Below, one piece after another: positions 1-63,417 of a stretch of 64,000 bases of DNA (positions are counted from its first letter, which is position 1; each line of letters begins with the position of its first letter). The notes below the pieces were generated by a model. That model was not told where the DNA came from. It made no database searches and saw only the letters and a program-made list of their open reading frames with translations. The stretch comes from a virus: positions 62,603 through 126,602 of IMG/VR virus record IMGVR_UViG_3300029551_000174. One strand, 5' to 3'. Made by a program: the position numbers and the translations under genes.

Positions 1-619
1 AGATGGTTTTCTTGATACCAATTTACATACTTTAGCATCAGAAAAGGAGGCGAAATCTTTTATCAAATGTATTGAGGAAAAATTAGGTGGCAAACTCAAT
101 CGTGAGACTCTTGAAGTAGAGAAGACTCAGCCAGAGTTCAAGGATGGGGATATAGTAACTATGCATAAGAAAAACTGTGATATAGTGTTCATTTTTAATA
201 GACTGAAAACTGAAGGTTCTTTCTATTATTACGCTTTCCATGCACTCCAAACAAATACAGGTATAATAGATTGTCATACTACATTGCCTTGTGCGTGGAC
301 ATTTTTTGAGGGCAAAATGAATTTTGCCACAGACTCAGAGAAGCAGCAGCTCTTTGGTGCTCTCGCAAAGGAAGGCAAGGCTTGGGATGCTGATAAGAAA
401 ATGATTGTGAACTTGAAGCCAAAGATTGAGCTGAAACCATTCGATAAGGTGTTGGTAAGAAATCAAAAAACAGAGGAATGGAGTGCAAATATATTTAGCC
501 ATACAGATAAGACTGATGAATATCTTGACTATGTATGTGTTAATGGCAGATGGGAGTTCTGCATCCCTTACATCGGTAATGAGCATTTGTTAGGTACAAC
601 TAAAGATGTGGAGGTATGA
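1..619 (+). CDS. hypothetical protein, 5'-partial (start lies upstream of window); paralog of CDS 45067..46035
   Basis: Open frame from nt 1 to stop at 617-619. nt 1-170 are ~98% identical to 45421-45590, and the C-terminal 90 aa (SEKQQLF.ALAKEGKAWDA...GNEHLLGTTKDVE) align to the C-terminus of 45067..46035. Confidence 0.55.
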   Translation, partial: DGFLDTNLHTLASEKEAKSFIKCIEEKLGGKLNRETLEVEKTQPEFKDGDIVTMHKKNCDIVFIFNRLKTEGSFYYYAFHALQTNTGIIDCHTTLPCAWTFFEGKMNFATDSEKQQLFGALAKEGKAWDADKKMIVNLKPKIELKPFDKVLVRNQKTEEWSANIFSHTDKTDEYLDYVCVNGRWEFCIPYIGNEHLLGTTKDVEV

Positions 620-1844: not shown

Positions 1845-1890
1845 CATACTTTCTCTTGGTAATATGAGAAGATATTCGTACCTTTGCAAT
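1845..1890 (+). promoter_or_regulatory. Bacteroidetes sigma-A promoter (-7 'tacctttgca')
   Basis: TAnnTTTG -7 consensus at 1879-1888, upstream of CDS 1975. Confidence 0.5.
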
Positions 1891-1943
1891 GTCTTTAAGA
1901 GATAAAGGCTTTAAAGTTTAACTATCAATTGCTGTTATGCAGC

Positions 1944-1966
1944 CGAGTCGGCACTCGTAAAACGGT
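1944..1966 (+). promoter_or_regulatory. Leader hairpin variant (cgag-tcggca-ctcg + taaaacggt)
   Basis: Same architecture as 18550-18573 (cgtg-ttcggca-cacg + taaaacggt), with a compensatory stem change. Confidence 0.5.
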
Positions 1967-1974
1967 TTGAGGAT

Positions 1975-3072: not shown

Positions 3073-3999
3073 ATGACAGGATTCAAAAGTGAAAATGTCG
3101 AATTGGAGGCTTTGCCAGTAGCCTCATCAGTTTTAAACAACTTCAAAGAAGGAGGTGTTAGAGTTGTAGAAATTATTGAGCATGACGGCAAGCAATCCGT
3201 GAACGCAAGGGAACTGCACCAAAAGTTGGGCAGCAAGCAGCAGTTTGCTAATTGGATTAGAAATCGTATTGAAAAGTACGGATTCGTTGAAAATCAAGAC
3301 TTTTGCTCATTTAATAAAGTTATTAAACGAGAAAATGGTGCTACAACAGTTACAGAGTATGCCCTTTCGCTAGATATGGCGAAGGAGTTGTGCATGGTTG
3401 AGAACAACGAGAAAGGCAGGATGATTCGCAAGTACTTTATTGAGGTTGAGAAGAAGGCTAGAACACAAAATCCATTTGCAATTCCTCAGACTTATTCTGA
3501 AGCCTTGCTTCTTGCTGCAAACCAAGCAAAGCAAATCGAAAAGCAGCAATTGGCATTGGAGCAGAAGAAAATTGAGAATGACAAGCTGGTTGCAGATGGT
3601 AAGCGCAAGGACGCAACCATAGTACGTATGAAGCCTAAAGAGGTATTCACGGATGCGGTTGCAGGTAGCAAGGGCAATTGCCTAGTTGGTGAGGTTGCGA
3701 AGTTGATAACCCAGAATGGCTACAAGATTGGCGAAAAGCAATTTTTTGCTTGGTTGCGTGATAATGGCTACCTTGGAAAGAAAGGAGAGCGTTACAATAT
3801 TCCTAACCAGCAGTATATGGGTAAGAATCCTTTGTTTTATATCAAGAGAGGTGTGCGACAGGGTGATAATGGAGTGTTGCACACGACAAGTACAACAATG
3901 CTGACACCAAAGGGACAGATTTATTTCGTAAACAAGTTCCTTGGAAAAGGAGGTTTGCAAGGCGATCTGTTTGCGAATGGTGAGGCACACGATAAATAA
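3073..3999 (+). CDS. Phage antirepressor, Bro-N domain + KilA-C domain
   Basis: N-terminus (VEIIEHDGKQSVNARELHQKLGSKQQFANWIRNRIEKYGFVENQDF) is typical of Bro-N. C-terminal KilA-C-like region. Paralogs at 20277..21158 and 16936..17688. Confidence 0.75.
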   Translation: MTGFKSENVELEALPVASSVLNNFKEGGVRVVEIIEHDGKQSVNARELHQKLGSKQQFANWIRNRIEKYGFVENQDFCSFNKVIKRENGATTVTEYALSLDMAKELCMVENNEKGRMIRKYFIEVEKKARTQNPFAIPQTYSEALLLAANQAKQIEKQQLALEQKKIENDKLVADGKRKDATIVRMKPKEVFTDAVAGSKGNCLVGEVAKLITQNGYKIGEKQFFAWLRDNGYLGKKGERYNIPNQQYMGKNPLFYIKRGVRQGDNGVLHTTSTTMLTPKGQIYFVNKFLGKGGLQGDLFANGEAHDK

Positions 4000-7629: not shown

Positions 7630-7676
7630 AAATTTGGTCGTATAACAAATATGTTATATCTTTGCATTGTCTTAAG
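7630..7676 (+). promoter_or_regulatory. Bacteroidetes promoter upstream of hicA (-7 'ttatatctttgca')
   Basis: Consensus motif. Confidence 0.5.
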
Positions 7677-7697
7677 GACAAAAGAGTTCTTGTAACA

Positions 7698-7880
7698 ATG
7701 AAGAAAAGCGAATTGATTAAGAGACTGAGAGAAGCGGGATGCTTCCTGTCTCGACAAGGTTCGGGACATGAAAAATGGACTAATCCAAAAACGGGAAAGT
7801 CTCAATTCGTGCCAAGACACGCTAGAGAGGTCGCCACAGGCACCGCTCATAGTATTCTAAGAGAATTGGTTGGGGAGTAA
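7698..7880 (+). CDS. hicA: HicA family toxin (mRNA interferase), type II TA
   Basis: MKKSELIKRLREAGCFLSRQGSGHEKWTNPKTGKSQFVPRH.REV..GTAHSILREL is a canonical HicA signature. Start moved to an internal ATG of track ORF 7662..7880. Confidence 0.8.
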   Translation: MKKSELIKRLREAGCFLSRQGSGHEKWTNPKTGKSQFVPRHAREVATGTAHSILRELVGE

Positions 7881-7952: not shown

Positions 7953-8351
7953 ATGAAGAAGATTAAAGTTATTGTAGAACAAGCCAAGGATGGGTCTTTT
8001 TGGTGTCATACCGAAAATGGCATAGATAAGGTTGGTTTAAACTCTTGTGGAGAAACTGTTGCCGCTGCGAAGCAAGACTTAATGGATTGTTTGGTGTTGG
8101 CAAAAGAGGATGCAAAAGAGAATGGAGAAGTGTTTCCTGACGTTGAATTTGAATACAAGTATGACTTACAATCTTTCTTTAATTATTTCTCTTTCCTCAA
8201 TGTGTCAGAGATTGCAAAACGAGCAGGTGTCAATCCTTCATTGATGCGTCAGTATAGTAAAGGCATAAAGCAAGCTGGCGAGAAAACTTATGAACGTTTG
8301 GCACATTGTATGAATGAAATAAAAAAAGATTTGGTAGCCGCTACCTTTTAG
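7953..8351 (+). CDS. hicB: HicB family antitoxin (RNase H-like fold N-domain + C-terminal HTH)
   Basis: Immediately downstream of hicA. C-terminal HTH (SEIAKRAGVNPSLMRQYSKGIKQ). Confidence 0.7.
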   Translation: MKKIKVIVEQAKDGSFWCHTENGIDKVGLNSCGETVAAAKQDLMDCLVLAKEDAKENGEVFPDVEFEYKYDLQSFFNYFSFLNVSEIAKRAGVNPSLMRQYSKGIKQAGEKTYERLAHCMNEIKKDLVAATF

Positions 8352-16809: not shown

Positions 16810-16856
16810 TTGCATTAATATGCTTGCAAGTTACACTAAAAAGTCGTATCTTTGCA
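16810..16856 (+). promoter_or_regulatory. Bacteroidetes promoter (-7 'cgtatctttgca')
   Basis: Consensus. Followed by the leader hairpin at 16899. Confidence 0.5.
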
Positions 16857-16898
16857 TCCGATTTCCACATTATAGGAATAATAGCTTAATTTTTAGAG

Positions 16899-16921
16899 CG
16901 TGAGTCACACGTTAAAAACTG
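16899..16921 (+). promoter_or_regulatory. Conserved leader hairpin element (cgtg-agtca-cacg + ttaaaaactg)
   Basis: Motif family. Confidence 0.5.
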
Positions 16922-16935
16922 AAAAGGAAAATAGA

Positions 16936-17688
16936 ATGAATGAGATTAAAGTGATTAACAAGTCAATGCTTCTTGGAAAGGAGATTGACGTGTATGGAAC
17001 TGCTGATGAGCCTTTGTTTAAGGCAAAGGACGTGGCAAGTTGGTTGGATATTCAGAATGTTTCTGACATGATAAAGAATATCGACCAAGATGAAAAGGTG
17101 TTAGATTCAATCTATACCCTTGGTGGAACACAAGAAGTTTGGTTGCTTACTGAGGATGGGGTGTATGAGGTCTTGATGCAAAGCCGTAAGCCAGTAGCCA
17201 AGCAGTTCAAGAAAGGAGTGAAGACCATCTTGAAGTCTATTCGCAAGACAGGTGGCTATTCCGTGGCTGGAACTATTACTGATAAGACGAAGGCAGGCAT
17301 GATTTGGGTGAAAGGCTGCAAGGAGCTTTTGAACTTAAACGATGCATCAACACTTGCATTGATGCAAAAGGTAGCCGAACCTTTAGGCTTGCCAACTCCA
17401 GACTACGTAAGCAGTAAGGGTGTCTTGAAGTCTTTGAGTGTATTGCTTGAAGAGAAGGGCATTGGAATATCTACACAAGCATTTAACAAGCTCCTAGTCA
17501 AGGATGGTTTGTTGCAAGTGCTTTATAGAAAAAGTAGTAAAGGTAAGCAAAAACAATTCAAGAACATTACCGAGAAGGGCTTGCCTTATGGTGAGAACAA
17601 GCAAAACCCAAAGAATCAGTCTGAGACACAGCCTTTGTGGTATGAGGATAAGTTCGATGAGGTTTTGAAGATTGTAGGCTTATTGTAG
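16936..17688 (+). CDS. Bro-N domain antirepressor-like protein
   Basis: ATG start downstream of the hairpin, in place of the track's GTG inside the motif. Bro-N-like N-terminus. The C-terminal part (KVAEPLGLPTPDYVSS...) is homologous to the middle of 20277..21158 (KIAEPLGLPTPDYVSA, ...KGLAYGEN...TQP.WY..KF.EVL.I.G). Confidence 0.65.
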   Translation: MNEIKVINKSMLLGKEIDVYGTADEPLFKAKDVASWLDIQNVSDMIKNIDQDEKVLDSIYTLGGTQEVWLLTEDGVYEVLMQSRKPVAKQFKKGVKTILKSIRKTGGYSVAGTITDKTKAGMIWVKGCKELLNLNDASTLALMQKVAEPLGLPTPDYVSSKGVLKSLSVLLEEKGIGISTQAFNKLLVKDGLLQVLYRKSSKGKQKQFKNITEKGLPYGENKQNPKNQSETQPLWYEDKFDEVLKIVGLL

Positions 17689-18020: not shown

Positions 18021-18269
18021 TTATCCCTCCACCTTAATATTGATAGGCTTACCACAATGAGGGCAAGTAAAGATTGGCTTGGTTGGTTCTATTTCATCTT
18101 TAAAGAAGTCACCAACTTTGCACCCTAATACATCAGCAATACGTAGCAATGTCTTCATCGTTGGGTTACGGCTGAGGTTTTGGGTGAAAGTAAATCTTGT
18201 AATACCCATTTCTTTTGCTACCTGTTCGATAGTAAATCCCTTTTCTTTGATAATTGTTTTAACGTCCAT
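18021..18269 (-). CDS. XRE-family HTH regulator with C-terminal zinc ribbon (CPHCGKPI), copy 2
   Basis: HTH (FTIEQVAKEMGITRFTFTQNLSRNPTMKTLLRIADVLG) followed by C-x-x-C. Confidence 0.7.
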   Translation of the reverse strand: MDVKTIIKEKGFTIEQVAKEMGITRFTFTQNLSRNPTMKTLLRIADVLGCKVGDFFKDEIEPTKPIFTCPHCGKPINIKVEG

Positions 18270-18454
18270 ATTTCTTATATATATTAATGTGAGACTTTAT
18301 TTTGTGTGCAAAGATAATACATATAAATGAAACTACCAAATTTTTTCTTTGTTTTGTGCAGGTAAGTTCTAACAATGTGAATAAAAGTAAAGAATAAAAT
18401 CTAAATTATCTTATTTTGTTAATGATTGTTTATATTCTAACATTTTCTCTCAAA

Positions 18455-18497
18455 TTGTTTGGTATGTTAGAATATATTTTGTATCTTTGCATCGTGA
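18455..18497 (+). promoter_or_regulatory. Bacteroidetes promoter (-7 'ttgtatctttgca') plus the shared leader 'tcgtgattaagaaacaaaggt'
   Basis: Consensus. The leader resembles the 22805 and 44465 cassettes. Confidence 0.5.
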
Positions 18498-18549
18498 TTA
18501 AGAAACAAAGGTCACAAGAACATTATTAATTTAGTTGAGGCAGCGCCTC

Positions 18550-18573
18550 CGTGTTCGGCACACGTAAAACGGT
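18550..18573 (+). promoter_or_regulatory. Leader hairpin variant (cgtg-ttcggca-cacg + taaaacggt)
   Basis: Pairs with the 1944-1966 variant. Confidence 0.5.
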
Positions 18574-18581
18574 ATAGCAAT

Positions 18582-18764
18582 ATGACTACTTCAATGATAA
18601 GAAGAAACTTGATTCAGAAGTTCGTTATGACAGAGTTCGTAAGCAACAGAATGAACACCCAAAAGGACGTTGATAGAATGTTGAATATGATAACAATAAA
18701 GCTCAATATGAACAACGATGAGGCTAAGAGCTTCTTGCGTGAGAGCATCGGACTTGCAAAGTAA
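18582..18764 (+). CDS. hypothetical small protein
   Basis: 60-aa ORF after the leader hairpin. Confidence 0.4.
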   Translation: MTTSMIRRNLIQKFVMTEFVSNRMNTQKDVDRMLNMITIKLNMNNDEAKSFLRESIGLAK

Positions 18765-18798: not shown

Positions 18799-19128
18799 AT
18801 GGCTACTACATTTAAGAATATGATGAGAGAAGTGATGAAGCTTGCTTGGCAGTTCATCAAGAAGAATGGCTACACAATGAGCGAGGCTTTAAAGGTCGCT
18901 TGGATGAACATCAAGCTGAAGGGTCAGATGAAGAAGCGCATCGTGAAGTTCTACTTCCAGAAGGTTGATGGCAGCTTGCGTGAGGCATTCGGCACATTGA
19001 GCGAGAAGGTTATCCCAGCTACACAGGGTGCAGGTCGCAAGATGAATGACACTTGCCAAGTGTACTTTGATACCGAGAAAGAAGAATGGCGTTGCTTCAA
19101 GAAGGCAAACCTTATGAGAGTTGCATAA
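18799..19128 (+). CDS. hypothetical protein (paralog of 1975..2313)
   Basis: Alignment. Confidence 0.6.
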   Translation: MATTFKNMMREVMKLAWQFIKKNGYTMSEALKVAWMNIKLKGQMKKRIVKFYFQKVDGSLREAFGTLSEKVIPATQGAGRKMNDTCQVYFDTEKEEWRCFKKANLMRVA

Positions 19129-19160: not shown

Positions 19161-19460
19161 ATGAGCGCAAAGATTATCGTGATGCAAGGCAACATGGTTG
19201 CAACCATCGAAGAGACGAACAAGGACGCATTTCTCAAGCGTGGAGAGTATAAAGAGACCGATCTGGACAGACATAAGCGTGAGGTCGATTTCTTGATTAC
19301 AAGCATCGCTAACCGCTACGAAGTGACATTCAATCACAAGGTAGAGCTGAAGGAAAGCCGAAGCATCAAGAAAAGCGAGTATTTCGATAACATCTACTAC
19401 GTTACCGAGAATGCATTGAACAAGCTGAAAAAGCAATACTCATACGAGTGTGACTTGTAA
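19161..19460 (+). CDS. hypothetical protein
   Basis: ORF in series. Confidence 0.45.
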   Translation: MSAKIIVMQGNMVATIEETNKDAFLKRGEYKETDLDRHKREVDFLITSIANRYEVTFNHKVELKESRSIKKSEYFDNIYYVTENALNKLKKQYSYECDL

Positions 19461-19490: not shown

Positions 19491-19521
19491 CCGGACTTTG
19501 GACATTAAATATTTAAGAGAT

Positions 19522-19821
19522 ATGGATAAGAATTTGATGGATGCTCTTTACGTTGAGCATGATGGCAAGATTGGCGTTTTAAGCTCAGATGAGTACAAGG
19601 TGGTATCACAGGTTATCGGCACGGATTTGACGCTTGTGTACGACAAGAAAGAGGGTAATACGTACCTTTTGATACCACTAACCCGAAAACATAAGTTCGA
19701 ATGCAATTGTAGTCACATTATCGTGGATGGCAAGCGGTTCGATTCTGACATCTTTTTCCGCAAGGATGCTTGCCAATGGATTCAGATGCAATCAAAAGAA
19801 ATGCTATTAATGGTAGCGTAA
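19522..19821 (+). CDS. hypothetical protein (paralog of 2661..2957)
   Basis: Start moved to the internal ATG matching the paralog N-terminus (MDKNLMDALYVEHDGKIGVL). Confidence 0.55.
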   Translation: MDKNLMDALYVEHDGKIGVLSSDEYKVVSQVIGTDLTLVYDKKEGNTYLLIPLTRKHKFECNCSHIIVDGKRFDSDIFFRKDACQWIQMQSKEMLLMVA

Positions 19822-20276: not shown

Positions 20277-21158
20277 ATGACATTAGAATTTAACAAAACT
20301 GATGTAAATGTAGAGGCTTTACCAGTAGTCTCAGAGTTCCTTAACAAAGAAAAGAGAGGTATTGAAGTTGTAGAGATTATCGAGCATGACGGCAAACAAG
20401 CCGTGAACGCAAGGGAGCTGCACCAAAAGTTGGGCAGTAAGCAAGACTTTTCAACATGGATTAAAAATCGCATAGAAAAGTATGGATTCGTTGAAAATCA
20501 AGATTTTGAAGTTTTCCACAAAATTATGGAAAACTCAAATGGTGGTCGAAGTCGTATTGAGTATGCCTTATCTTTGGATATGGCAAAGGAGTTGTGTATG
20601 ATAGAGAACAATGAGCAAGGTAGATTGTTCCGTAAGTACTTCATCGAAGTCGAGAAAGTTGCCAGAGTCAAGTACGAGCAGGAGAAGCTGGACAAGAAGG
20701 CTTCCGATTCCTTTGACATCAAGCTGAAGTGGTTGAACTTTCTTCCTGGTTATCTGAACCTCAGCGATGTTTCCAAATTGGCGATGGCTAAGAAAATTGC
20801 TGAACCATTAGGGTTGCCGACACCTGATTATGTGAGCGCACCGAATGGTGCAAAGCATTCCGCTACGGAGTTATTGAAATCTCATGGTGTAGGCTTGTCT
20901 GCTCGAAAGTTCAATGAGTTGGCGGTAAAGGCAGGATTATTGAAGCTAAAAGAGCGCAAGGGTACGAACAAGGTACACAAGTATTGTGAGATTACCAAGA
21001 AAGGATTGGCTTATGGTGAGAACGACATCAACGAGAAGAATATGAATCAAACACAACCACATTGGTATGATTCTAAATTTGGGGAGGTATTGGAAATCAT
21101 CGGCTACAAGTCATCCAAGCAAGTAGATATGTTTGCAAGCGGTGAGACACACGATTAA
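20277..21158 (+). CDS. Phage antirepressor, Bro-N domain protein
   Basis: N-terminus (VEIIEHDGKQAVNARELHQKLGSKQDFSTWIKNRIEKYGFVENQDF) is ~90% identical to 3073..3999. The C-terminus differs and matches 16936..17688. Confidence 0.75.
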   Translation: MTLEFNKTDVNVEALPVVSEFLNKEKRGIEVVEIIEHDGKQAVNARELHQKLGSKQDFSTWIKNRIEKYGFVENQDFEVFHKIMENSNGGRSRIEYALSLDMAKELCMIENNEQGRLFRKYFIEVEKVARVKYEQEKLDKKASDSFDIKLKWLNFLPGYLNLSDVSKLAMAKKIAEPLGLPTPDYVSAPNGAKHSATELLKSHGVGLSARKFNELAVKAGLLKLKERKGTNKVHKYCEITKKGLAYGENDINEKNMNQTQPHWYDSKFGEVLEIIGYKSSKQVDMFASGETHD

Positions 21159-22715: not shown

Positions 22716-22759
22716 TTTTGCGCCTACATATATAATAAGCGTTAAAATGCAAAAGAAAT

Positions 22760-22812
22760 ACATTAAATAATTTGCATATTTCGATAATTCTTTGTATCTT
22801 TGCATCGTAATT
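22760..22812 (+). promoter_or_regulatory. Bacteroidetes promoter (ataatttgca ... tgtatctttgca), part of the repeated promoter-leader cassette
   Basis: Consensus. 22741-22862 is ~97% identical to 44401-44527. Confidence 0.6.
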
Positions 22813-22837
22813 AAGAAACAAGGTTACTAATTAAAAA

Positions 22838-22861
22838 GGTGAGACACACCGTAAAAACTGT
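22838..22861 (+). promoter_or_regulatory. Conserved leader hairpin element (ggtg-agaca-cacc + gtaaaaactgt)
   Basis: Motif family. Confidence 0.55.
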
Positions 22862-22869
22862 GATTCGTT

Positions 22870-23091
22870 ATGAATACTAGATTGAGTAAGAAAGAAACAA
22901 TGGTTTATGGCAATATCGAAGTGATGGCTGATGTAATTGGTGGTAACAAGTACTTTACATTTGCTGAGTTGTATGATTTCGATTTGGATAATACCAAGGA
23001 TGAGTTGAAAGAAATGTTAAACTCTTTGACAGAGAAAGGTTACTTGAAGAGTTTTCACGATTTCTACGAAACTTATCGAGTTTTAAAGTAA
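22870..23091 (+). CDS. hypothetical protein
   Basis: First ORF after the promoter-leader cassette. Confidence 0.45.
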   Translation: MNTRLSKKETMVYGNIEVMADVIGGNKYFTFAELYDFDLDNTKDELKEMLNSLTEKGYLKSFHDFYETYRVLK

Positions 23092-23137: not shown

Positions 23138-23160
23138 CGTGAGACACACGTAAAACTGTA
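23138..23160 (+). promoter_or_regulatory. Conserved hairpin element (cgtg-agaca-cacg + taaaactgta)
   Basis: Motif family. Confidence 0.5.
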
Positions 23161-36963: not shown

Positions 36964-37311
36964 TTGACTTTGCAATCGGTAGTTTCGTGTTTTTGTGTTT
37001 TAAATAAGATGCAAGACGTAAGGTTAATATTCGAGATACTTGTTTCCATGCTGCTTTGCGTTTGTCTCATATTGCTTGCTGTAAGTAGATATAGGCAAAA
37101 GAAAAAGCGTGAAGAACCGGAGCGAAAGGAAATGGACTTGATAGACTTCTTTTCTTTGGGAGGAGTTGCCTATTATTGGAACAAAGGTGGTAAGCAGCAG
37201 AAATGCTACACATATGAAGAATTTCTGAAAATCAAGGCTGACTACGTGGAGCTTTGGTTGAATCAGAACAGATATATTTTTAACTCTCAATTAGATTGCG
37301 ATGATATATAG
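36964..37311 (+). CDS. Small membrane protein
   Basis: TM helix LIFEILVSMLLCVCLILLAV. Confidence 0.4.
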   Translation: MTLQSVVSCFCVLNKMQDVRLIFEILVSMLLCVCLILLAVSRYRQKKKREEPERKEMDLIDFFSLGGVAYYWNKGGKQQKCYTYEEFLKIKADYVELWLNQNRYIFNSQLDCDDI

Positions 37312-37531
37312 AGTATTTGTTTTGTTTCCGACAATAGTTGTATCAGATGGTATTGTCGGTATAGCTTGGCTAGGAAAGGTCTTTAGCTGGCGATATGGAA
37401 AGAACAAGAAAAAGAGCAAGAATGTATCCTTGATGATAGGATATAACACAGGAATGTCTCTTAAGTCGAAAATAGACGATAACGCTGCGGATGATTATTT
37501 AAGACGCATTGCCGAAGAAAACAGAATCTAA
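37301..37531 (+). CDS. Small membrane protein
   Basis: Hydrophobic N-terminus. Confidence 0.35.
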   Translation: MIYRVFVLFPTIVVSDGIVGIAWLGKVFSWRYGKNKKKSKNVSLMIGYNTGMSLKSKIDDNAADDYLRRIAEENRI

Positions 37532-37626
37532 ATTCAAGGGTTAGATACCCTTTTTACAACCATATTACTTGTGGTTATTTTTATACATCGGTTTTTATTA
37601 ACGATTGTTTTTTTTATGGTAGATAA

Positions 37627-38733
37627 ATGTATAAAAACGAGCACAAGTTCCCTTATAGATGGACTAAAAAAGATGCTAATTTCACAAAAGACAAAGGTAA
37701 GGTGATGTCTTGCTTCTGTTGTGGAGGTGGAAGTTCCTTTGGCTACAAACTAGCTGGCTACGATGTTGTAGCCTGTAATGAGATAGACCCAAAGGTTATG
37801 AAGATGTACTTGAAGAATCACGATGTCAAGTATGCTTTCAATTGTGATATTCGTGAGTTGATTACCAATATCAATATGGGGGGGCATATTATGAAAGAAG
37901 AGCTTCATAATTTGGATATATTGGATGCTAGTTTCCCTTGTTCGGTATTCAGTATTGCAGGTGACCGCCAAAAGGCTTGGGGAAAGGAAAAAGTATTCCG
38001 AGAAGGTCAGAAAGCACAAAGGCTTGACGATTTGGCTTTTTACTCAATCGCCCTCGCTCAAGAACTACAACCAAAGGTAGTGGTTTTTGAGAATGTCCAA
38101 GGTTTGTTGCAAGGTGAAGCTATCGAGTACGTGAAAGAGATTTACAGGCAGATGGATAATGCCGGATATATCTTGCAGCATTGGTTGCTTAATGCACGTA
38201 ATATGGGTGTTCCTCAGAATCGACCTAGGGTGTTCTTTCTAGGATTACGCAAAGACCTTTGCAAGCCGTTTATGGTTCAGAAGGATTTGTTCGAGCGAGT
38301 GCCTAAGATAGATATGGACTTCAACGAGAAAGAAATTGTCTTGGATGAGTTTTCGGACTATAGTGGAAGACAGATTCCAAAAGGAGTGATGAAGTATTGG
38401 GAGCATAGAAACGAGAAAGACAATTCTATCGGTGATATTGTCAAACGGATGGATAATCGTCTTTCTATGTTCAATAATATGTTTCTTAAAAAGGATAAAG
38501 TATGCAATACTATATCAGCAATGGAAGATAGGCTTTTGTATTTTGATAATCCAAGTTATATTTCAGCGCATGATACGATTTTAGCATCAACATTCCCGAT
38601 GGATTATGACTTTAATGGCATGAAGCCTTGGTTTGCTTGCGGAATGTGCGTTCCTCCGGTTATGATGGCGAATGTAGCTGCGAGAATCTGGGATTGTTGG
38701 TTGTCAAAGATTAAAAAGGAGGAATGCGCATGA
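37627..38733 (+). CDS. DNA (cytosine-5)-methyltransferase
   Basis: Motif I FCCGGGSS, PC motif ASFPCSVFSIAG, ENV motif VFENVQGL. Confidence 0.8.
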   Translation: MYKNEHKFPYRWTKKDANFTKDKGKVMSCFCCGGGSSFGYKLAGYDVVACNEIDPKVMKMYLKNHDVKYAFNCDIRELITNINMGGHIMKEELHNLDILDASFPCSVFSIAGDRQKAWGKEKVFREGQKAQRLDDLAFYSIALAQELQPKVVVFENVQGLLQGEAIEYVKEIYRQMDNAGYILQHWLLNARNMGVPQNRPRVFFLGLRKDLCKPFMVQKDLFERVPKIDMDFNEKEIVLDEFSDYSGRQIPKGVMKYWEHRNEKDNSIGDIVKRMDNRLSMFNNMFLKKDKVCNTISAMEDRLLYFDNPSYISAHDTILASTFPMDYDFNGMKPWFACGMCVPPVMMANVAARIWDCWLSKIKKEECA

Positions 38734-39467
38734 TAACAGCAAGTATGACTTCGGGTGAGATGCGTAGAGTACGAAACTTAGATGAAGCTAGAATCTATGA
38801 GTTTCAGATGCGAAAAGCTAATGAGCTTAAACGTGAAATGAGAAAGCAGAACGTAAGACAAATAACAAAGACCTTTGAGTTTGCTACACCGAATGCCGAT
38901 TATTTTATCGTTGTAGGTGTAAAACATGGCGATGTATTTGCTTCCGGTGTGTTCATTTATCTGAAGGAAACTAACGAGTATATTCCTATGAGCAGAAATG
39001 AGGGGTATAGCGAGGATTGTTTTGCTATGAGCGTTCATTTTCTGAAGAGATATGCAGAAAGGTATTTGAAAAAGGATTTGCCGATAGCAAAGATATTACA
39101 AAAGATATATACATCGTTTACAGGTGCGGTTCAGCTTTATAGTGACGACAAGACAAAAAGGGTGGTGTTTGCTATTCCGGAAGGGCTTATACTCACAGAA
39201 TACGAGCAAGAAAAGCGTATCATCCACTACAAAACCTTTGTAAGCATGGATATGCTAAAGAAGACACAGATGCAAAGTTACGAGAAGATTAGTGCATTTC
39301 TAATGGAATCATGTCAGCAAATAGCTATGGCAAGAGAAGCAGGAAATGACGAAAAGCTGGGCGTTGTGTACAGAAGGTTTTATGATGATATTGATTTACT
39401 AGACACTAAGGAGGCGCAAGCCATATATTCAGGTTTCTTTGAAAAAGGAGGTAACAATGAAAGATAA
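38724..39467 (+). CDS. hypothetical protein
   Basis: ORF between the methyltransferases. Confidence 0.45.
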   Translation: MRMITASMTSGEMRRVRNLDEARIYEFQMRKANELKREMRKQNVRQITKTFEFATPNADYFIVVGVKHGDVFASGVFIYLKETNEYIPMSRNEGYSEDCFAMSVHFLKRYAERYLKKDLPIAKILQKIYTSFTGAVQLYSDDKTKRVVFAIPEGLILTEYEQEKRIIHYKTFVSMDMLKKTQMQSYEKISAFLMESCQQIAMAREAGNDEKLGVVYRRFYDDIDLLDTKEAQAIYSGFFEKGGNNER

Positions 39468-39960
39468 ATGTATAACAAGGTTTCTTGGTGATATTAAGCC
39501 TATAAAGAATTACGAAAGGTATTATGTTAGCAAGCTGGGACATGTCTTTACTATTGGGAGAACGTCTCAATTAAAGGAAATCGCACCTTGCAAGACACCA
39601 AAAGGTTATTTGAAGGTATGGCTTTACAAAAACGGAAAGCGAAAGATGTTCTATGTTCATCGTTTGGTAGCGCAGGCATTCTTGGAGAATCCAGATGCAT
39701 TACCAATGGTGAATCATAAGGATTTCGACAAGACGAATAATAACGTAGATAACTTGGAGTATTGTACCGCAAGATACAATGTGATTTATTCTGCTATAGC
39801 AAAGAAAACCTCTTCCGAATACTTGGGTGTTACTTGGAATAAGAGTGTAAGAAAATGGCAAGCTCAGTACCAGGTAGGTAAGAAGAAAACTTATATCGGA
39901 TGCTTTGGTACGCAAGAAGAGGCTCACGAAGCTTATGTTAACGCTACAAAAGAGATTTGA
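39457..39960 (+). CDS. HNH homing endonuclease with NUMOD4-like and AP2 domains
   Basis: YYVSKLGHVF...GYLKV.LYKNGKRKMFYVHRLVAQAF, VNHKDFDKTNNNVDNLEY (HNH_3), EYLGVTWNK..RKWQAQY.VGKKKTYIGCFGTQEEAHEAY (AP2). Confidence 0.7.
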   Translation: MKDKCITRFLGDIKPIKNYERYYVSKLGHVFTIGRTSQLKEIAPCKTPKGYLKVWLYKNGKRKMFYVHRLVAQAFLENPDALPMVNHKDFDKTNNNVDNLEYCTARYNVIYSAIAKKTSSEYLGVTWNKSVRKWQAQYQVGKKKTYIGCFGTQEEAHEAYVNATKEI

Positions 39961-39961
39961 C

Positions 39962-40675
39962 ATGCTTAAATTTGATAGAATATACAATTCCGACTGTATA
40001 GAAGGAATGAAACAAATAGAGACCAGGAAAGTAGATTTAATTGTTACTGACCCACCATATTGTATCTCCTATAAGACCGGATGGAGAGCAGACGACCATC
40101 GCTTTTCGAAGGAAATACTCAATGACGATAATGAGCAATTGATTATTGATTATATGAGCGAATGCTACCGGATTTTGAAGGATGATAGTGCTGCTTATAT
40201 CTTCTGTAGTGCCAAAACATTGGACTTTTTTATGCAACAAGCGAGGAACGCAGGGTTTACCATTAAGAATGTGCTCATTTGGCGAAAGAACAACCATACG
40301 GCTGGAGATTTAGAGGCGCAATATGGGCAATGTTACGAGCCAATCCTGTACTTGAATAAAGGCAGACGAACCATAAACGGAAAGCGTTTGGAGGACGTAT
40401 GGGACTTTGATAGAGTTCCATCTGATAAATTGGTACATCAGAAAGAGAAACCAATTCCCTTGCTTATGCAATGCATCTTGAAATCATCGGACGAAGGAGA
40501 TTTGGTATTTGATGGTTTTATGGGTTCAGCAAGTACTGCTTTGGCTTGTATGCGAACAAACAGGAATTTCCTTGGCTTTGAATTAGACGGGGAATATTTC
40601 AAGGTAGCACAAAAAAGAATCAAAGAAGAAATGTTTAATCAAAAAGATATGTTTGGATATGTTGGAGATAGATAA
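39962..40675 (+). CDS. DNA methyltransferase, N6-adenine/N4-cytosine (beta class, DPPY)
   Basis: IVTDPPY motif IV. C-terminal FDGFMGSASTALAC motif I. Confidence 0.75.
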   Translation: MLKFDRIYNSDCIEGMKQIETRKVDLIVTDPPYCISYKTGWRADDHRFSKEILNDDNEQLIIDYMSECYRILKDDSAAYIFCSAKTLDFFMQQARNAGFTIKNVLIWRKNNHTAGDLEAQYGQCYEPILYLNKGRRTINGKRLEDVWDFDRVPSDKLVHQKEKPIPLLMQCILKSSDEGDLVFDGFMGSASTALACMRTNRNFLGFELDGEYFKVAQKRIKEEMFNQKDMFGYVGDR

Positions 40676-41405
40676 GATTTATCAAGTTGATTGTCTGGAT
40701 GGTATGAGCAAGATTGATGACAAATCTGTCTCGCTTATACTCACAGACCCTCCATATGAAATTTCAAGGAATTCCAATTATGCAAAGTCCGCTCCTACTG
40801 GTAAAGATACTGATAGATTCCGCATATCTATCGACTTTGGAGACTGGGATAAACAGGAAGCATTTGATATAGGCTCTATGATAAAAGAATCCTACAGGTG
40901 CTTGAAAGATGGTGGATATATAGTTTGTTTCTATGATTTGTGGAAGATTGGGGTCGTAAAGGATGCGATGATTAATGTCGGATTTAAACAAATTAGATTT
41001 ATTGAATGGATAAAAACAAATCCTGTTCCAATAAATAGTAAGACAAACTATCTCACAAACGCAAGAGAGGTCGCTGTGTGTGGGGTGAAAGGTAAAAATC
41101 CTATCTTTAAAAGCGAATATGACAATGGAGTATATAGCTTTCCAATCTGTCGTGATAAGGGGAGATTTCATCCTACCCAGAAGCCTGTTAGTCTTTTCAG
41201 AAGCATTATAAACAAGCATTCCTGCAAAGGAGATATTGTACTAGATTGCTGTATAGGTAGTGGAACTACGGCTATTGCGTGTATTCAAGAAAATCGTAAT
41301 TTTATTGGTTTTGAAACTAATAGAGAGTTTTACGACAAAGCAAACGAGAGAATAGAAAATGAATTAATGATAAAGCAAGATAGTTTATTTAGTAATGAAA
41401 GTTAG
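40653..41405 (+). CDS. DNA methyltransferase, N6-adenine/N4-cytosine (beta class, DPPY)
   Basis: ILTDPPYEIS and C-terminal VLDCCIGSGTTAIAC. Confidence 0.75.
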   Translation: MDMLEIDKIYQVDCLDGMSKIDDKSVSLILTDPPYEISRNSNYAKSAPTGKDTDRFRISIDFGDWDKQEAFDIGSMIKESYRCLKDGGYIVCFYDLWKIGVVKDAMINVGFKQIRFIEWIKTNPVPINSKTNYLTNAREVAVCGVKGKNPIFKSEYDNGVYSFPICRDKGRFHPTQKPVSLFRSIINKHSCKGDIVLDCCIGSGTTAIACIQENRNFIGFETNREFYDKANERIENELMIKQDSLFSNES

Positions 41406-42130
41406 TGGGTGATATGATGGAGCTAAATAGAATTTATCAAGGTGATTGCCGAAAGCTTCTAAAGCAGCTAGACGATGAATGTATAGACCTAGTATGCTCT
41501 GATGTTGCTTATCCGGTACAAGCTAGAGGTGGGCGCAGTAGTATGAGTGGATATTGGACGGATTCTCAAACTAGAAAAGGTAAGATATTCAAGAGTAATG
41601 ACATAGATATTTCGGAGTATATCAACGAACTATATCGAGTACTAAAGGATAAGACTCATTGCTATCTTATGTGTAACGACTATAATCTGATGCACTTTCT
41701 AGATGAGATAGGACGGAGTGAGTTTCACTTCACAAAGTGTTTAATATGGGATAAATGCACTAAGGTGTGTGGAACGTATTATATGAACCAAAAAGAGTAT
41801 ATCATTATGCTTCGTAAGGGAGGTGGAAAGCCAATTAATGAGTTTGGCACATCTGACATTCTGAGTGTTCCTATTCCAACCAACAAACGCAGGGATAAAG
41901 AAGGATTGATCAATCAGACCGAAAAACCAGTTAAGTTGATGGAGATTCTAATCAGAAACTCAACAAATGTAGGTGATGTTGTTCTTGACCCATTTATGGG
42001 GAGTGGCACAACAGCAAGGGCTTGCGTTAATCTTGAAAGAAAGTATATAGGCTTCGAAATAGACCAGCGGCAAGTAGATTTTTCCAATAACGAATTAAAG
42101 AGCATGAGTAGGCAATTAAGTCTGTTTTAA
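41405..42130 (+). CDS. DNA methyltransferase-like protein with atypical motif IV (SDVAYP) and intact motif I
   Basis: LVCSDVAYPV in place of DPPY. C-terminal VLDPFMGSGTTARAC. Confidence 0.6.
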   Translation: MGDMMELNRIYQGDCRKLLKQLDDECIDLVCSDVAYPVQARGGRSSMSGYWTDSQTRKGKIFKSNDIDISEYINELYRVLKDKTHCYLMCNDYNLMHFLDEIGRSEFHFTKCLIWDKCTKVCGTYYMNQKEYIIMLRKGGGKPINEFGTSDILSVPIPTNKRRDKEGLINQTEKPVKLMEILIRNSTNVGDVVLDPFMGSGTTARACVNLERKYIGFEIDQRQVDFSNNELKSMSRQLSLF

Positions 42131-42134
42131 AACA

Positions 42135-42359
42135 ATGGATATGAGTATGGTTATTCAATGTAACACAGTTGTAAGAAATGGGAATAAAGAGATAACGGAT
42201 GCTCTTATAAAAGCCATTAAGGATGAAGCCTCGAAGCGTGGGTTGGTACGTGATGAATTGGTTGAATATTGCAACCAATTGTTAAGGAAAGGCGAAATCA
42301 AGGCTTGTATTAAGAATTTGTTTTATAATTTCAAACGTTATTTTTGGAGGTATTATTGA
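42135..42359 (+). CDS. hypothetical protein
   Basis: ORF. Confidence 0.4.
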   Translation: MDMSMVIQCNTVVRNGNKEITDALIKAIKDEASKRGLVRDELVEYCNQLLRKGEIKACIKNLFYNFKRYFWRYY

Positions 42360-42360
42360 T

Positions 42361-42990
42361 ATGAGAAGAAGAAAGTTGAACAAGTCTCCAGTGCTAGGTC
42401 TCTGCGGATTTGTTGTCGGTTACGAGTGCAAGGAAAAGGGAATAAAGCTGATGGAGTGCGATAAGGCGCAAGCTGATGCAATCATAGTTCCTCATCACTT
42501 TTCACACAAGGTAACGAAGAATAGTTGCTTGAATCTTTTGGTATTGTACAAAGGCAAGATTAGGGGTGCTATGCAAATTGGGTATGGAATTCGACCGCAT
42601 ATCAAGACTGAAAAGGGCGAAGTGTTGGATTACCATCAAGTGAGGGAATTTGACCGAATGTGGTTGTCTGATGATATGCCAAAGTATAGCGAAACCATTT
42701 GCCTTTCTCTCTTACACAAGTATATTAGGGCAACGCATAAGGAAATCAAGTATCTTATATCTTATGCCGATACGTCCATAGGTAACAAGGGAACTATATA
42801 TAAAGCTGCAAACTATGAGCATATTGATACCATTAAGGCAGATTTCTATGTATTACCAAGTGGTGAGCGTGTGCATCCGGTAACTATGTGGCATCGGCAC
42901 AAGACAAGAGTGTGGGAGGTTCTGACGGAACTATACCCAGGAATAAAAAAGGCAGAAGGGTTTCAACTTAAATTTCTGAAGAAGTTATGA
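42361..42990 (+). CDS. hypothetical protein (candidate DNA-modification accessory)
   Basis: 209-aa ORF immediately downstream of the methyltransferase block. Confidence 0.45.
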   Translation: MRRRKLNKSPVLGLCGFVVGYECKEKGIKLMECDKAQADAIIVPHHFSHKVTKNSCLNLLVLYKGKIRGAMQIGYGIRPHIKTEKGEVLDYHQVREFDRMWLSDDMPKYSETICLSLLHKYIRATHKEIKYLISYADTSIGNKGTIYKAANYEHIDTIKADFYVLPSGERVHPVTMWHRHKTRVWEVLTELYPGIKKAEGFQLKFLKKL

Positions 42991-43202
42991 AGAAAAGAAA
43001 TAAATATATTCCTTGTCATTTGCATCCAGATCCTGAGCATTGGGTTAGAAAAGGTCAATCTTGGAAGGCGAAGGTCGCTTATGAAAACGAGGATGATGCT
43101 TGGGAATTTCTGAATCAGAATCCGAAGTTAAAGGCACTCGGTTGGCATCCTTACTTATGCAAGGTTTGCTCAAAGTGGCATATTGGTAGGTTACATAATT
43201 AA
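42987..43202 (+). CDS. Small Cys/His-rich (zinc-finger-like) protein
   Basis: CHLH...CKVCSKWH. Confidence 0.4.
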   Translation: MKKRNKYIPCHLHPDPEHWVRKGQSWKAKVAYENEDDAWEFLNQNPKLKALGWHPYLCKVCSKWHIGRLHN

Positions 43203-43207
43203 CGATT

Positions 43208-43594
43208 ATGAAAAAAGAAGATAGACTTAAAATATATCGCAAATACGATGGGCATTGTGCTTATTGCGGTAAGAGTATAGAGTATAAGGATATGCAGGTT
43301 GACCATCTTGTTCCGAATAATCGAGGTTGTTACTCTCGGTGGAGCGACAAGGAGGGAAGGTTTGTCGTTTTTCATGGCGATGACTGTATGGAGAACTATA
43401 TGCCATCTTGCAGGTCTTGTAATCTTCGTAAGCGTGATATGAGTTTGGAACAATTTCGCTCAGAGATTACTAGACAGGCTAAAGGATTGCTTAATGGTAA
43501 GGCTTCTTTCCAAGTAAAGATGTCGCTTGCTTATGGTTTAATCGAAGAGCACTTTGATAGACAAATTGAGTTCTACTTTGAGAAATTTAAATAA
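43208..43594 (+). CDS. HNH endonuclease
   Basis: HCAYCGK...DHLVPNNRG...CRSCNLRK (HNHc). Confidence 0.7.
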   Translation: MKKEDRLKIYRKYDGHCAYCGKSIEYKDMQVDHLVPNNRGCYSRWSDKEGRFVVFHGDDCMENYMPSCRSCNLRKRDMSLEQFRSEITRQAKGLLNGKASFQVKMSLAYGLIEEHFDRQIEFYFEKFK

Positions 43595-43602
43595 TAGGGA
43601 AT

Positions 43603-43887
43603 ATGAAGAAGTTTAAGAAGTCGATAGAGATTAGCACTGAGAATATTTCAGACGTTCTTCAAGTGCCAATTGTTACAAGTTTATACAAGACTAAGAATTT
43701 TAAAAATCCTTGCCTTGAAGGTCGTAGCGTTCCTTATGATACTATAGCATTGATGTATGTTCATATCGAAGGCTTTGATAGCGATTTTTGTATTGACCAA
43801 GGCAACATGCTCGCTCTTGATATTTGTGATACTTGGTATGCCTTTTCAAAAGCAGGGTGGGAGAAACATAAAAACGATGAGGTATGA
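43603..43887 (+). CDS. hypothetical protein
   Basis: ORF. Confidence 0.4.
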   Translation: MKKFKKSIEISTENISDVLQVPIVTSLYKTKNFKNPCLEGRSVPYDTIALMYVHIEGFDSDFCIDQGNMLALDICDTWYAFSKAGWEKHKNDEV

Positions 43888-44291
43888 AGAAGAAAGGATA
43901 TTACGAATACGACCCTGTTATCTATCCAAGAATGTTATGTGTCGCTATTGGAATGAACCAAGAGGACGCTAACAAGTGTTTTGAAGGTAGAAAAGGTGAG
44001 GTTTTGAAGGTTGATTTCTCTAATTCTAACGCAATAACCTACGATGAAGTTAGGGAAAAGTCGAATAAGAAGCTTTGTTCATTTATTAATTTTGCAAGCA
44101 AGGATTCTATGAGGATGGGGATTTGTTGCCATGAAGCTTCTCATGCCTGCGATGCCATCGAGGATGCTATTGGTATGGAACACGGAGGCGAGCCTTCTGC
44201 CTACTTGATTGGTTGGATTGCGTCTTGCATCAACAAGGCACGTTTGGGTATTGGTGATTTCGTTGAAATTAAAGATAAGGAAGAAAAGTAG
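43884..44291 (+). CDS. Small HExxH zinc metallopeptidase-like protein
   Basis: HEASHACDAIEDAIGMEHGGE (HExxH plus downstream E). Confidence 0.5.
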   Translation: MKKKGYYEYDPVIYPRMLCVAIGMNQEDANKCFEGRKGEVLKVDFSNSNAITYDEVREKSNKKLCSFINFASKDSMRMGICCHEASHACDAIEDAIGMEHGGEPSAYLIGWIASCINKARLGIGDFVEIKDKEEK

Positions 44292-44419
44292 CCCAAAGAC
44301 AAAATACCTTTGAGTGCTTTGCCCCATCACTATATATAATAATGTAGTGGTGGGGATTTTTGTGTTAACATCAGCAAATTATCCGTCTGTATTATTATAG
44401 TATGTTAAATACTAAAAGA

Positions 44420-44472
44420 AACACATTAAATAGTTTGCATATTTCGATTATTCTTTGTATCTTTGCATCGTA
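44420..44472 (+). promoter_or_regulatory. Bacteroidetes promoter, copy of the 22760 promoter-leader cassette
   Basis: 44401-44527 is ~97% identical to 22741-22862. Confidence 0.6.
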
Positions 44473-44500
44473 ATTAAGAAACAAGGTTACTAATTAAAAA

Positions 44501-44524
44501 GGTGAGACACACCTTAAAAACTGT
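44501..44524 (+). promoter_or_regulatory. Conserved leader hairpin element (ggtg-agaca-cacc + ttaaaaactgt)
   Basis: Motif family. Confidence 0.55.
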
Positions 44525-44533
44525 AATGAGAAA

Positions 44534-63416: not shown

Positions 63417-63417
63417 G

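Follow-up and report, generated by a model that had tools for sequence, protein, structure and literature searches.

Why should two small genes of one phage, with unrelated sequence on either side, start behind nearly the same 120 bp of DNA? The pair lies in a stretch of 64,000 nucleotides from the IMG/VR virus record IMGVR_UViG_3300029551_000174 (called the window below, at its full length), and a preliminary description had regarded the repeated segment as a portable promoter-plus-leader cassette, recently copied or converted, that would wire dispersed operons into one regulon. The reading that we favour, with moderate confidence, is that of a portable promoter plus 5'-untranslated region (5'-UTR) and translation-initiation module, which is reused before many early and accessory genes and shuffled by homologous recombination. 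It would have three parts, namely a promoter of the host sigma-A(Bfr) type (-33 TTTG, 20 nt, -7 TATCTTTG) with a conserved CAYTAAA upstream of it, a conserved leader beginning with GURAUUAAGAAACAA, and a separable hairpin element, called HP2, about 9-10 nt upstream of the start codon.

The repeated promoter and leader

The two copies, their genes, given as open reading frames (ORFs), and a shorter version of the cassette are located as follows.

22751-22869, plus strand: cassette copy A, with CATTAAA at 22761-22767, -33 TTTG at 22771-22774, -7 box TATCTTTG at 22795-22802 and predicted +1 G at 22807
22807-22869, plus strand: leader of copy A, with HP2 (GGTG-AGACA-CACC) at 22838-22850 and the A-rich tract and ACTG at 22851-22860; covariance-model score 38.1 bits
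22870-23091, plus strand: gene of copy A, a 73-aa ORF with its ATG at 22870, 9 nt past ACTG
44414-44533, plus strand: cassette copy B, with -33 TTTG at 44434-44437, -7 box at 44458-44465 and predicted +1 G at 44470
44501-44513, plus strand: HP2 of copy B, with its tail running to ACTG at 44523; 39.1 bits
44534-44908, plus strand: gene of copy B, a 124-aa ORF with its ATG at 44534, 10 nt past ACTG
63394-63469, minus strand: short cassette of the leftward helicase block, with CATTAAA, a CTTGCA -33 region and -7 box TATCTTTG at 63435-63428
63416-63404, minus strand: HP2 of the short cassette, about 9 nt from the predicted +1, tail to 63394; 39.0 bits

The ungapped core of the repeat, 22751-22864 against 44414-44527, is identical at 109 of 114 positions (95.6%), and a repeat search of the window returned the same pair at 93% over 124 nt. 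The repeat seen earlier by eye, at about 97% identity, is hence real; owing to ragged 5' ends, the global alignment over 22741-22862 and 44401-44527 comes to 89.8%. The surroundings are indeed unrelated, as had been stated, since the 200 nt upstream of the two copies align at 57% and the first 200 nt of the downstream coding sequences at 52% (gapped), which is the background level. All the parts that had been named are there, that is, the -33 TTTGCA, the -7 TATCTTTG, the leader TCGTAATTAAGAAACAAGGTTACTAATTAAAAA and the hairpin GGTGAGACACACC. The repeat search also recovered the short minus-strand version ahead of the helicase operon (63394-63470), and the partial versions at 16810-16921, 18455-18573 and 29352-29500 were found to have 62-64% overall identity, with the promoter and hairpin blocks in common. 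A 34-nt promoter core, searched with up to three mismatches, matches the window at the two copies only (0.00 expected). The 73-aa and 124-aa genes gave no PHROG or Pfam match.

The consensus of the primary sigma factor of Bacteroidota is -33 TTTG / -7 TAnnTTTG, with the -7 element refined to TAHHTTTG and no G at -10/-9 (PMC6847099). The -7 box of the cassette fits both forms at 22795-22802, at 44458-44465 and, on the minus strand, at 63435-63428, and the spacer between the -33 TTTG and the -7 box is 20 nt in copies A and B. In the whole window the pattern TTTG-N18-22-TAHHTTTG occurs 16 times, against 1.7±1.3 times in shuffled sequences; about 10 of the 16 matches are intergenic and co-oriented with downstream genes, and the remainder, which lie inside ORFs, may be due to chance. 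A sigma-70 scan of 16-30 kb stayed at the chance level (43 matches, 41.3 expected), and a scan of the same region for intrinsic terminators gave no enrichment over chance. From the geometry of the consensus (the G-5 position of the -7 element; PMC6847099), the transcription start would be the G of CATCG at 22807 and 44470. Genes start within some 70-110 nt of the cassette promoters.

Beyond the general Bacteroidota consensus, three blocks are conserved: CAYTAAA upstream, TTTGCA at -33 and CATCGT around +1. Two sub-classes of promoter can be distinguished. The first, CAYTAAA-N3-TTTGCA, is found at 7305, 16813, 20009, 22771, 28152, 29374, 36824 and 44434, and on the minus strand at 63469; the second, TTTGGTA, at 7633, 18458, 18340 (minus) and 21283, with a CTTGGTA variant at 1856.

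The HP2 element, its pairing and its link to start codons

HP2 consists of a 13-nt hairpin, sGWG-AGNCA-CWCs (4-bp stem and 5-nt loop), with an A-rich tract and then ACTG behind it. In the window there are 10 occurrences of the HP2 core, GTGAGNCACAC, against an expectation of 0.04; nine copies are on the plus strand within the plus-strand gene block and one is on the minus strand within the minus-strand block, so that all are co-oriented with the genes. With a covariance model these ten copies score 24-39 bits and the next best match 10.7. Two further copies with 6- or 7-nt loops, at 1944 and 18550, belong to the second class of leader described below. The hairpin had been described as a piece of the cassette. 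It is present there, but it is not confined to it, and with 10 canonical and 2 variant copies it has to be treated as a motif of its own. The copies are found in early and accessory regions; the tail and head modules have none. A generic scan for a 4-bp hairpin followed by an A-tract and C[TG]G gave matches as frequent as in shuffled sequences, which means that HP2 is defined by its sequence as well as by its shape. In Rfam, the whole window gave five tRNAs only at the gathering threshold; at a permissive E-value, 22740-22900 had a best E of 1.3, and 29380-29520 and 18470-18600 had no match. Six of the ten canonical copies have no adjacent promoter:

23138-23158, plus strand: stand-alone HP2, CGTGAGACACACG TAAAACTG, 10 nt ahead of ATG 23169 (27-aa hydrophobic ORF), no promoter; 30.9 bits
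19468-19488, plus strand: stand-alone intercistronic HP2, 8 nt past the stop of ORF 19161-19460; 30.1 bits
19833-19855, plus strand: stand-alone HP2 with a G.U outer pair, 12 nt past the stop of ORF 19522-19821; 33.8 bits
621-643, plus strand: weakest canonical HP2, with the tail AACTT and not AACTG, 2 nt past the stop of ORF 161-619; 24.0 bits
3979-4003, plus strand: degenerate HP2 with a broken outer pair (G/G), over the last codons of the Ant-like gene 3073-3999; 31.2 bits
21141-21162, plus strand: degenerate HP2 with a broken outer pair (G/G), over the end of the paralogous Ant-like gene 20277-21158; 28.1 bits

The copy at 19468 is followed by an in-frame TTG at 19498, 9 nt past ACTG and upstream of ATG 19522. 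The copy at 19833 has no convincing start codon at the usual spacing and that at 21141 has none; the one at 3979 is probably vestigial.

The wider distribution of the element was examined in relatives of the phage. The window has a G+C content of about 38%, with the genes on the plus strand up to about 57 kb and on the minus strand beyond, and codes for a 2177-aa tape measure protein, a major head protein, RtcB, DNA methylases and a helicase, as well as for Ant/Bro anti-repressors, helix-turn-helix (HTH) repressors and five tRNAs. Its closest GenBank records are unannotated human faecal phage fragments (93.5% identity), and the annotated phage collection returned only such fragments and two promoter-like matches in microviruses, with no cultured relative. 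The same helicase is found at 97-100% identity in at least 100 IMG/VR contigs of 63-135 kb, and homologues at 60-81% lie on contigs with integrases, S24 repressors and NinG and also in Bacteroides and Parabacteroides genomes. From the gene content, the faecal relatives, the helicase carriers in IMG/VR and the contigs of the distant homologues, the phage belongs to an abundant human-gut lineage of Bacteroidales (Prevotella-type) siphoviruses, very common and of the temperate type.

The counts of contexts and copies that follow were drawn from 2.7 Mb of related phage DNA and refer to the matches listed there. The promoter-plus-leader unit stands ahead of about 10 distinct N-termini, several of the class-2 ones being paralog-like, and HP2 ahead of at least 41-45; in 95 of 231 unique HP2 contexts there is no -7 box within 100 nt. 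In the viral collection, exact-pattern scans for HP2 and for the start of the leader each matched at least 100 contigs. The leaders fall into two classes. Class 1 has the order GURAUUAAGAAACAA..GUUAC..A-rich..HP2, with a weak 5'-terminal hairpin possible, and class 2 has a 5' hairpin, a linker and a middle hairpin that abuts a variant HP2, followed by UAAAACGG. In short leaders HP2 stands at the extreme 5' end, as in the 84 copies of CGUCUU+HP2. A scan of bacterial genomes for the leader start gave three matches, two of them on phage-like contigs in a metagenome-assembled genome bin and the third a 17-nt version of the leader at a gene of Prevotella sp.; with so few matches, it is not a common host motif.

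The first ATG past ACTG shows a sharp peak at 9-10 nt, and an ATG, GTG or TTG that opens at least 20 codons is found 6-12 nt past ACTG in 120 of 169 unique contexts (71%), compared to 16% at random positions. In several of the remaining contexts there is an ATG at 13-16 nt, and some apparent exceptions have an explanation: contexts of the 19468 type have the in-frame TTG at +9, the MGRTKE context has an in-frame GTG at +10, and the copy at 23138 has the 27-aa ORF. Where the outer pair is broken, the copy mostly lies over the 3' end of one of the two Ant-like genes and has no start codon. With this spacing, the A-run of HP2 comes to lie at about -13 to -17 relative to the start codon. In Flavobacterium, which belongs to a phylum that makes no use of Shine-Dalgarno pairing, ribosome profiling has identified a positive determinant rich in A at about -12 to -15 (PMC6847099; see also PMC7797042). 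The position of the A-run fits this determinant (-12 to -15, PMC6847099).

The favoured mechanism is that HP2 and its A-rich tail form a portable Shine-Dalgarno-independent translation-initiation or 5'-UTR module. The hairpin would hold the A-run single-stranded at the edge of the ribosome-binding region, at the site of the A-rich enhancer of Bacteroidota, and the invariant loop and ACUG would provide a common recognition point for one factor, either the ribosome with bS1 or a phage protein. The genes with HP2 could then be controlled together, after transcription, through that factor. A more specific version, which we offer only tentatively, is that HP2 is a dedicated signal for ribosome recruitment and translational control, a functional substitute for the Shine-Dalgarno sequence. 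The host ribosome/bS1 or an RNA-binding protein of the phage would read it; it would define a post-transcriptional regulon of dozens of early and accessory genes and serve in addition as a homology patch for the exchange of gene cassettes. As to the regulon proposed earlier, joint wiring of the dispersed operons is plausible; HP2 can be separated from the promoter and follows start codons, which points to wiring that is post-transcriptional rather than purely transcriptional.

We now turn to the pairing of the stem. In 221 unique contexts from close relatives the outer pair is G-C in 123, C-G in 74, G-T in 12 and of another kind in 12, and the third pair is of the Watson-Crick type in 169 of 169 unique contexts, although it was left free in the search. 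Phages whose helicase is 65-81% identical keep HP2 with the compensatory variants GGAG/CTCC, CGAG/CTCG, AGGG/CCCT, AGTG/CACT and TGTG/CACA. Over 23 distinct hairpin sequences, 92.4% of the cells are paired and double changes occur in two of the four pairs; the covariation score is 0.324, compared to 0.072±0.034 after shuffling (0 of 500 shuffles as high), and the signal is lost when the partners are slid. The other two stem pairs (both G-C), the loop AGNCA and the ACTG are nearly invariant. Compensatory change is expected of nucleic-acid pairing and not of a protein that reads two DNA half-sites. For the class-2 leaders, RNAalifold gives two abutting hairpins, and 5 of their 10 pairs show compensatory changes; for the middle stem there are three versions of unrelated sequence (GAGGT/ACCTC, GCTG/CAGC and GCTAT/ATAGC). 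A loop-tail pseudoknot and an alternative pairing of GGUUAC with the start region were also considered and rejected, as neither is conserved across gene contexts.

One alternative reading is a signal at the DNA level. Here HP2 would be a phage-specific (middle or late) promoter or an activator site with very short leaders, and the cassette would consist of two tandem promoters. Such a signal would account for the fixed spacing to the start codon and for the stand-alone copies ahead of genes without a nearby host-type promoter; TAAAACTG loosely resembles TAnnTTTG (T, A and the final TG in common, by inspection), and relatives of the phage encode a protein with a domain like the RNA polymerase alpha C-terminal domain and an HTH. 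We consider this very unlikely, since a protein reading half-sites gives no compensatory selection on the stem pairs, and since the distance from the hairpin to ACTG varies from about 5 to 10 nt, unlike in promoters. Moreover, the leaders implied would be of 4-5 nt and poor substrates, and more than half of the copies have a strong host-type promoter 5-75 nt upstream of them. A scan of 106 window ORFs for a polymerase or sigma factor of the phage, or for ribosomal protein S21, found none, and the 10 other ORFs compared with PHROGs contain no RNA polymerase or sigma factor either; these results concern the window only.

Another option is that HP2 acts on the messenger after all, but in its processing or stability, as a 5' stabiliser or an RNase site between cistrons, or as an antitermination site of the nut type. 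The helicase leader, where HP2 stands 5-9 nt from the predicted +1 and far from the ATG, suits such a role, and so do the many short leaders that place HP2 at the extreme 5' end and the intercistronic copies 2-12 nt past stop codons; the layout of a hairpin next to a linear box also resembles nut sites. It is nevertheless improbable, in our view, as a start-codon spacing of 9-10 nt in about 70% of the contexts would be unexpected for a stabiliser or a nut site, and 10-12 copies in 64 kb do not correspond to one per operon. In addition, the pentaloop is not GNRA-like, and no boxA-like partner was noticed, although no systematic search for boxA was made.

A role for a phage protein has somewhat more in its favour. 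In phage T4, RegA acts as a translational repressor on early mRNAs and RegB is an endoribonuclease with target sites, and HP2 could similarly be the operator of an RNA-binding repressor or activator, or the target of an endoribonuclease, by which early and accessory genes are switched together. This alternative, which adds a putative dedicated trans-acting factor and overlaps with the favoured reading, is judged doubtful, less so than the one before. The near-invariant AGNCA loop, the two G-C pairs and the ACUG argue for sequence-specific recognition, the hairpin is too weak to be stable alone, and the distribution over early and accessory regions, away from the tail and head modules, is as expected of such an operator. 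Candidate proteins encoded in the window are two WYL_2 Sm-like proteins behind leaders with an HP2 variant, a HicA and an ASCH protein. For the WYL_2 proteins as the binder there is no support from co-occurrence in two distant relatives (L305 and L306), where the WYL_2 leaders have no HP2-like element and the covariance model finds no HP2.

Returning to the initiation module, several observations weigh against it. The two near-invariant pairs, the loop and the ACUG show that the sequence is read too, which implies a partner. The isolated hairpin is weak (-2.1 to -3.6 kcal/mol), as is the 5'-terminal hairpin of class 1 (-1.6 kcal/mol), which is broken in some variants. Most of the sequences are from close relatives (89-100% nucleotide identity), so that there are few independent covariation events, and the stem covariation alone would also be compatible with pairing in single-stranded DNA; of the variants that bear on RNA as against DNA pairing, C12>T had 0 matches in the viral collection and G2>A had 1. 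The HP2 of the helicase leader, 5-9 nt from the predicted +1, is 25-65 nt away from any start codon, a few copies lie inside the 3' ends of genes, and the predicted pairing and accessibility of the start regions with HP2 are not clearly unlike those of other genes. Finally, the transcription start, the pairing at the RNA level, the effect on translation and any trans-acting factor are points that we infer.

Exchange between phages and comparison with known systems

The same 25-115 nt precede many unrelated genes, and the cassettes may for this reason double as patches of homology, at which recombination would move, swap and partially convert them. Several observations in the relatives are of this kind. 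For orthologous cassettes, the identities of the upstream flank and of the downstream gene are uncoupled (0.91/0.99, 0.99/0.91 and 0.62/0.94), and one cluster of downstream genes is found behind up to five upstream clusters, and conversely. In contig 102127 the MKKFF cassette is a chimera that carries the 3' half of the leader of the MMITS cassette of the same genome; in contig 105285 a derived spacer variant is common to two paralogous cassettes; and at one locus the junction falls inside HP2 itself. A relative with an 81% identical helicase (L307) has a cassette pair of its own, at 1157-1290 and 17106-17240, with identical leaders and HP2 and different sequences upstream of the promoter, and is thus an independent repeat of the pattern in the window. 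The two Ant-like genes each end in a degenerate HP2 copy, which has the appearance of a scar left by recombination at that element. These paralogs (3073-3999 and 20277-21158) have 77% nucleotide identity over 300 nt, and a GC-rich hairpin follows each degenerate copy.

The gene conversion or recombination proposed earlier is in this way borne out in kind, by chimeric cassettes, swapped neighbours and uncoupled flank identities. An excess of identity within a genome is not seen: paralogous cassettes of one genome are 0.938 identical, the value also of the window pair, and this is not above the 0.912-0.955 of paralogs from different genomes. Recent copying of the pair, as had been claimed, thus finds no support, nor do these figures give a sign of concerted evolution. 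Across the lineage paralogous and orthologous cassettes are about equally identical, and the window pair is as alike as orthologous copies are. Conservation with occasional exchange accounts for the identity as well as recent duplication does.

The simplest form of the latter, in which one ordinary promoter region was recently duplicated and the HP2 copies elsewhere are decaying relics, is the least probable of the explanations considered, and we give it hardly any weight. It could explain why the 95.6% identity spans the promoter spacer, which is normally not constrained in sequence, and why some HP2 copies (3979, 21141) are degenerate. However, the cassette and HP2 occur throughout the lineage before dozens of different genes with a conserved spacing to the start codon, HP2 persists where the helicase is 65-81% identical and the remainder of the leader has diverged, the stem is kept by compensatory changes, and the window copies are no more alike than copies from different genomes.

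The closest functional parallel is with the promoter-early stem-loop (PeSL) elements, mobile regulatory cassettes of T4-type phages (Arbiol et al. 2010, PMC2839356; Comeau et al. 2014, PMC4122927). The cassette works most like these, yet it is not a member of the PeSL family. Both are conserved composites of about 100 bp, with a strong host-type early promoter, an AT-rich upstream region and a stem-loop; both are repeated in many intergenic positions before small genes of unknown function; and both mark the junctions of insertions, deletions and replacements between related phages and give rise to chimeric copies. In contrast to PeSLs, the present cassette has a Bacteroidota host and a -33/-7 promoter instead of a sigma-70 one, occurs in a siphovirus-like phage and not in a T4-type myovirus, and has no sequence similarity to them. 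The stem-loop of PeSLs is a stable GC-rich terminator or attenuator (usually GGGG..CCCC) around or upstream of the promoter, whereas HP2 has a weak 4-bp stem (-2 to -3.6 kcal/mol), a fixed loop and no U-tract, lies in the leader near the start codon and occurs also without any promoter.

A broader class, defined for bacterial and archaeal genomes, is that of putative mobile promoters, in which upstream regions have more than 50 nt at 80% identity or above and both flanking coding sequences are non-homologous (Matus-Garcia et al. 2012, PMC3488235). The window pair, with 114 nt at 95.6% between flanks of 57% and 52%, is of this kind, and together with the roughly 10 N-termini served in close relatives this agrees with the portable regulatory cassette of the preliminary description. 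The class is an operational one and is silent on mechanism (PMC3488235). Unlike in generic mobile promoters, the conserved block here runs through a structured leader up to the start codon.

For HP2 itself, the comparable systems are structured start regions that are independent of a Shine-Dalgarno sequence and post-transcriptional regulons of phages, such as the E. coli rpsA leader, the targets of T4 RegA and RegB and the boxB of lambda nut. The likeness is a functional analogy only: small hairpins with a conserved loop stand beside A/U-rich single strands in the leaders of several genes and are read by the ribosome/S1 or by a phage protein. There is no homology in sequence or structure, and the RegA and RegB sites are not hairpins. 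In lambda, boxB combines a stem of 5 bp with a GNRA-like pentaloop, and each operon has a single one, with no link to start codons; HP2 differs in its 4-bp stem and AGNCA loop, its 10-12 copies per 64 kb and its position mostly 9-10 nt from start codons. Mimicry of a CRISPR repeat (hairpin plus an 8-10-nt handle) was also considered; the number of HP2 copies speaks against this idea, and so does their link to start codons.

A literature search found no published description of the cassette or of HP2. The idea of a promoter cassette has precedent, and it is the start-codon-linked hairpin module in a system without Shine-Dalgarno sequences that appears undescribed. Ribosomes of Bacteroidota sequester the anti-Shine-Dalgarno sequence, and HP2 bears on the questions of how start sites are chosen and tuned in this phylum and how phages compete for its ribosomes. 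Standing before at least 41 unrelated genes, it is a concrete element that can be mutated in Bacteroides or Prevotella reporter systems and could be a compact expression part for engineering these hosts. The role of mobile regulatory cassettes as engines of phage mosaicism would be extended from T4-type coliphages to temperate-type gut siphoviruses.

Other cassettes and neighbouring genes

The remaining cassettes of the window have leaders different from those of copies A and B.

16813-16935, plus strand: partial cassette with CATTAAT and CTTGCA, -7 box at 16847-16854 and a different leader
16899-16911, plus strand: HP2 of the partial cassette, CGTG-AGTCA-CACG, tail to 16921, ahead of ATG 16936 (Bro-N protein); 35.4 bits
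18458-18581, plus strand: class-2 cassette with a TTTGGTA-type -33 region and -7 box at 18482-18489, ahead of ATG 18582
18494-18549, plus strand: in its class-2 leader, the 5' hairpin GUGAUU..GGUCAC at 18494-18515 and the middle hairpin GAGGC-AGC-GCCTC at 18537-18549
18550-18564, plus strand: its HP2 variant, CGTG-TTCGGCA-CACG, abutting the middle hairpin and followed by TAAAACGG at 18565-18572
1856-1974, plus strand: class-2-like cassette, paralog of the one at 18458, with -7 box at 1879-1886, a 5' hairpin and the middle hairpin GCTG-TTATG-CAGC
1944-1957, plus strand: its HP2 variant, CGAG-TCGGCA-CTCG, followed by TAAAACGG at 1958-1965 and ATG 1975 (WYL_2 protein)
29374-29512, plus strand: elaborated cassette with CATTAAA and CTTGCA and -7 box at 29398-29405, ahead of ATG 29513 (amidoligase-like)
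29410-29512, plus strand: its multi-hairpin leader of about 100 nt, with the HP2-like GGTG-AGAGCGA-CACC (7-nt loop) at 29462-29476 and GAAACAACTAG

The leader at 29410-29512 has a minimum free energy of -28.8 kcal/mol, precedes amidoligase-like and GATase-like genes and has no Rfam match. Between HP2 and the helicase, an upstream ORF of 20 codons (63368-63305, minus strand) ends with a stop that overlaps the helicase start ATG 63308 (ATGA), which suggests translational coupling. At 28152-28763, a promoter of the cassette class (CACTAAA-TTTGCA, -7 at 28176) drives a cluster of five tRNAs, namely Glu, Gln, Tyr and Lys and one at 28614-28688 whose anticodon could not be read by ARAGORN.

The class-2 leaders belong to two paralogous immunity-like switch regions, 1321-1988 and 18042-18595, each with divergent promoters and an HTH repressor on the minus strand (1368-1691 and 18021-18269). 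The WYL_2 Sm-like proteins are encoded on the plus strand at 1975-2313 and 18799-19128, behind the class-2 structured leader. The HicA assignment concerns a 72-aa ORF, 7662-7880, and its Pfam HicA_toxin match was assigned by reading the translation and not from a per-ORF scan; this ORF has its own TTTGGTC-type promoter, and the next one, 7953-8351, may be a HicB partner.

The ORF at the start of the window (1-619) is paralogous to a 322-aa ORF at 45067-46035 (45414-46030 aligned), with 95% nucleotide identity in the first 168 nt and less beyond, and has no family match. Upstream of copy B, 37009-44291 is a dense DNA-modification block with three N6_N4 methylases, a Mom-like protein and an HNH endonuclease. 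The block from 44.5 to 64 kb contains a protein with a Tad2-like (anti-Thoeris) domain, and RtcB is encoded there at 53118-54323.

In relatives, a 276-323-aa protein with Pfam HTH_17 and RNA polymerase alpha C-terminal domains (L299, 20818-21173; L311, 18061-18795) could modify the recognition of promoters or UP elements; it was not found in the window. Other genes of relatives are an intein-containing DNA methylase, a TnpB/Cas12f-like OrfB and an unusually long, 627-aa Thy1 gene (L313, 3065-4954; L317, 7219-7809 and 7926-9809).

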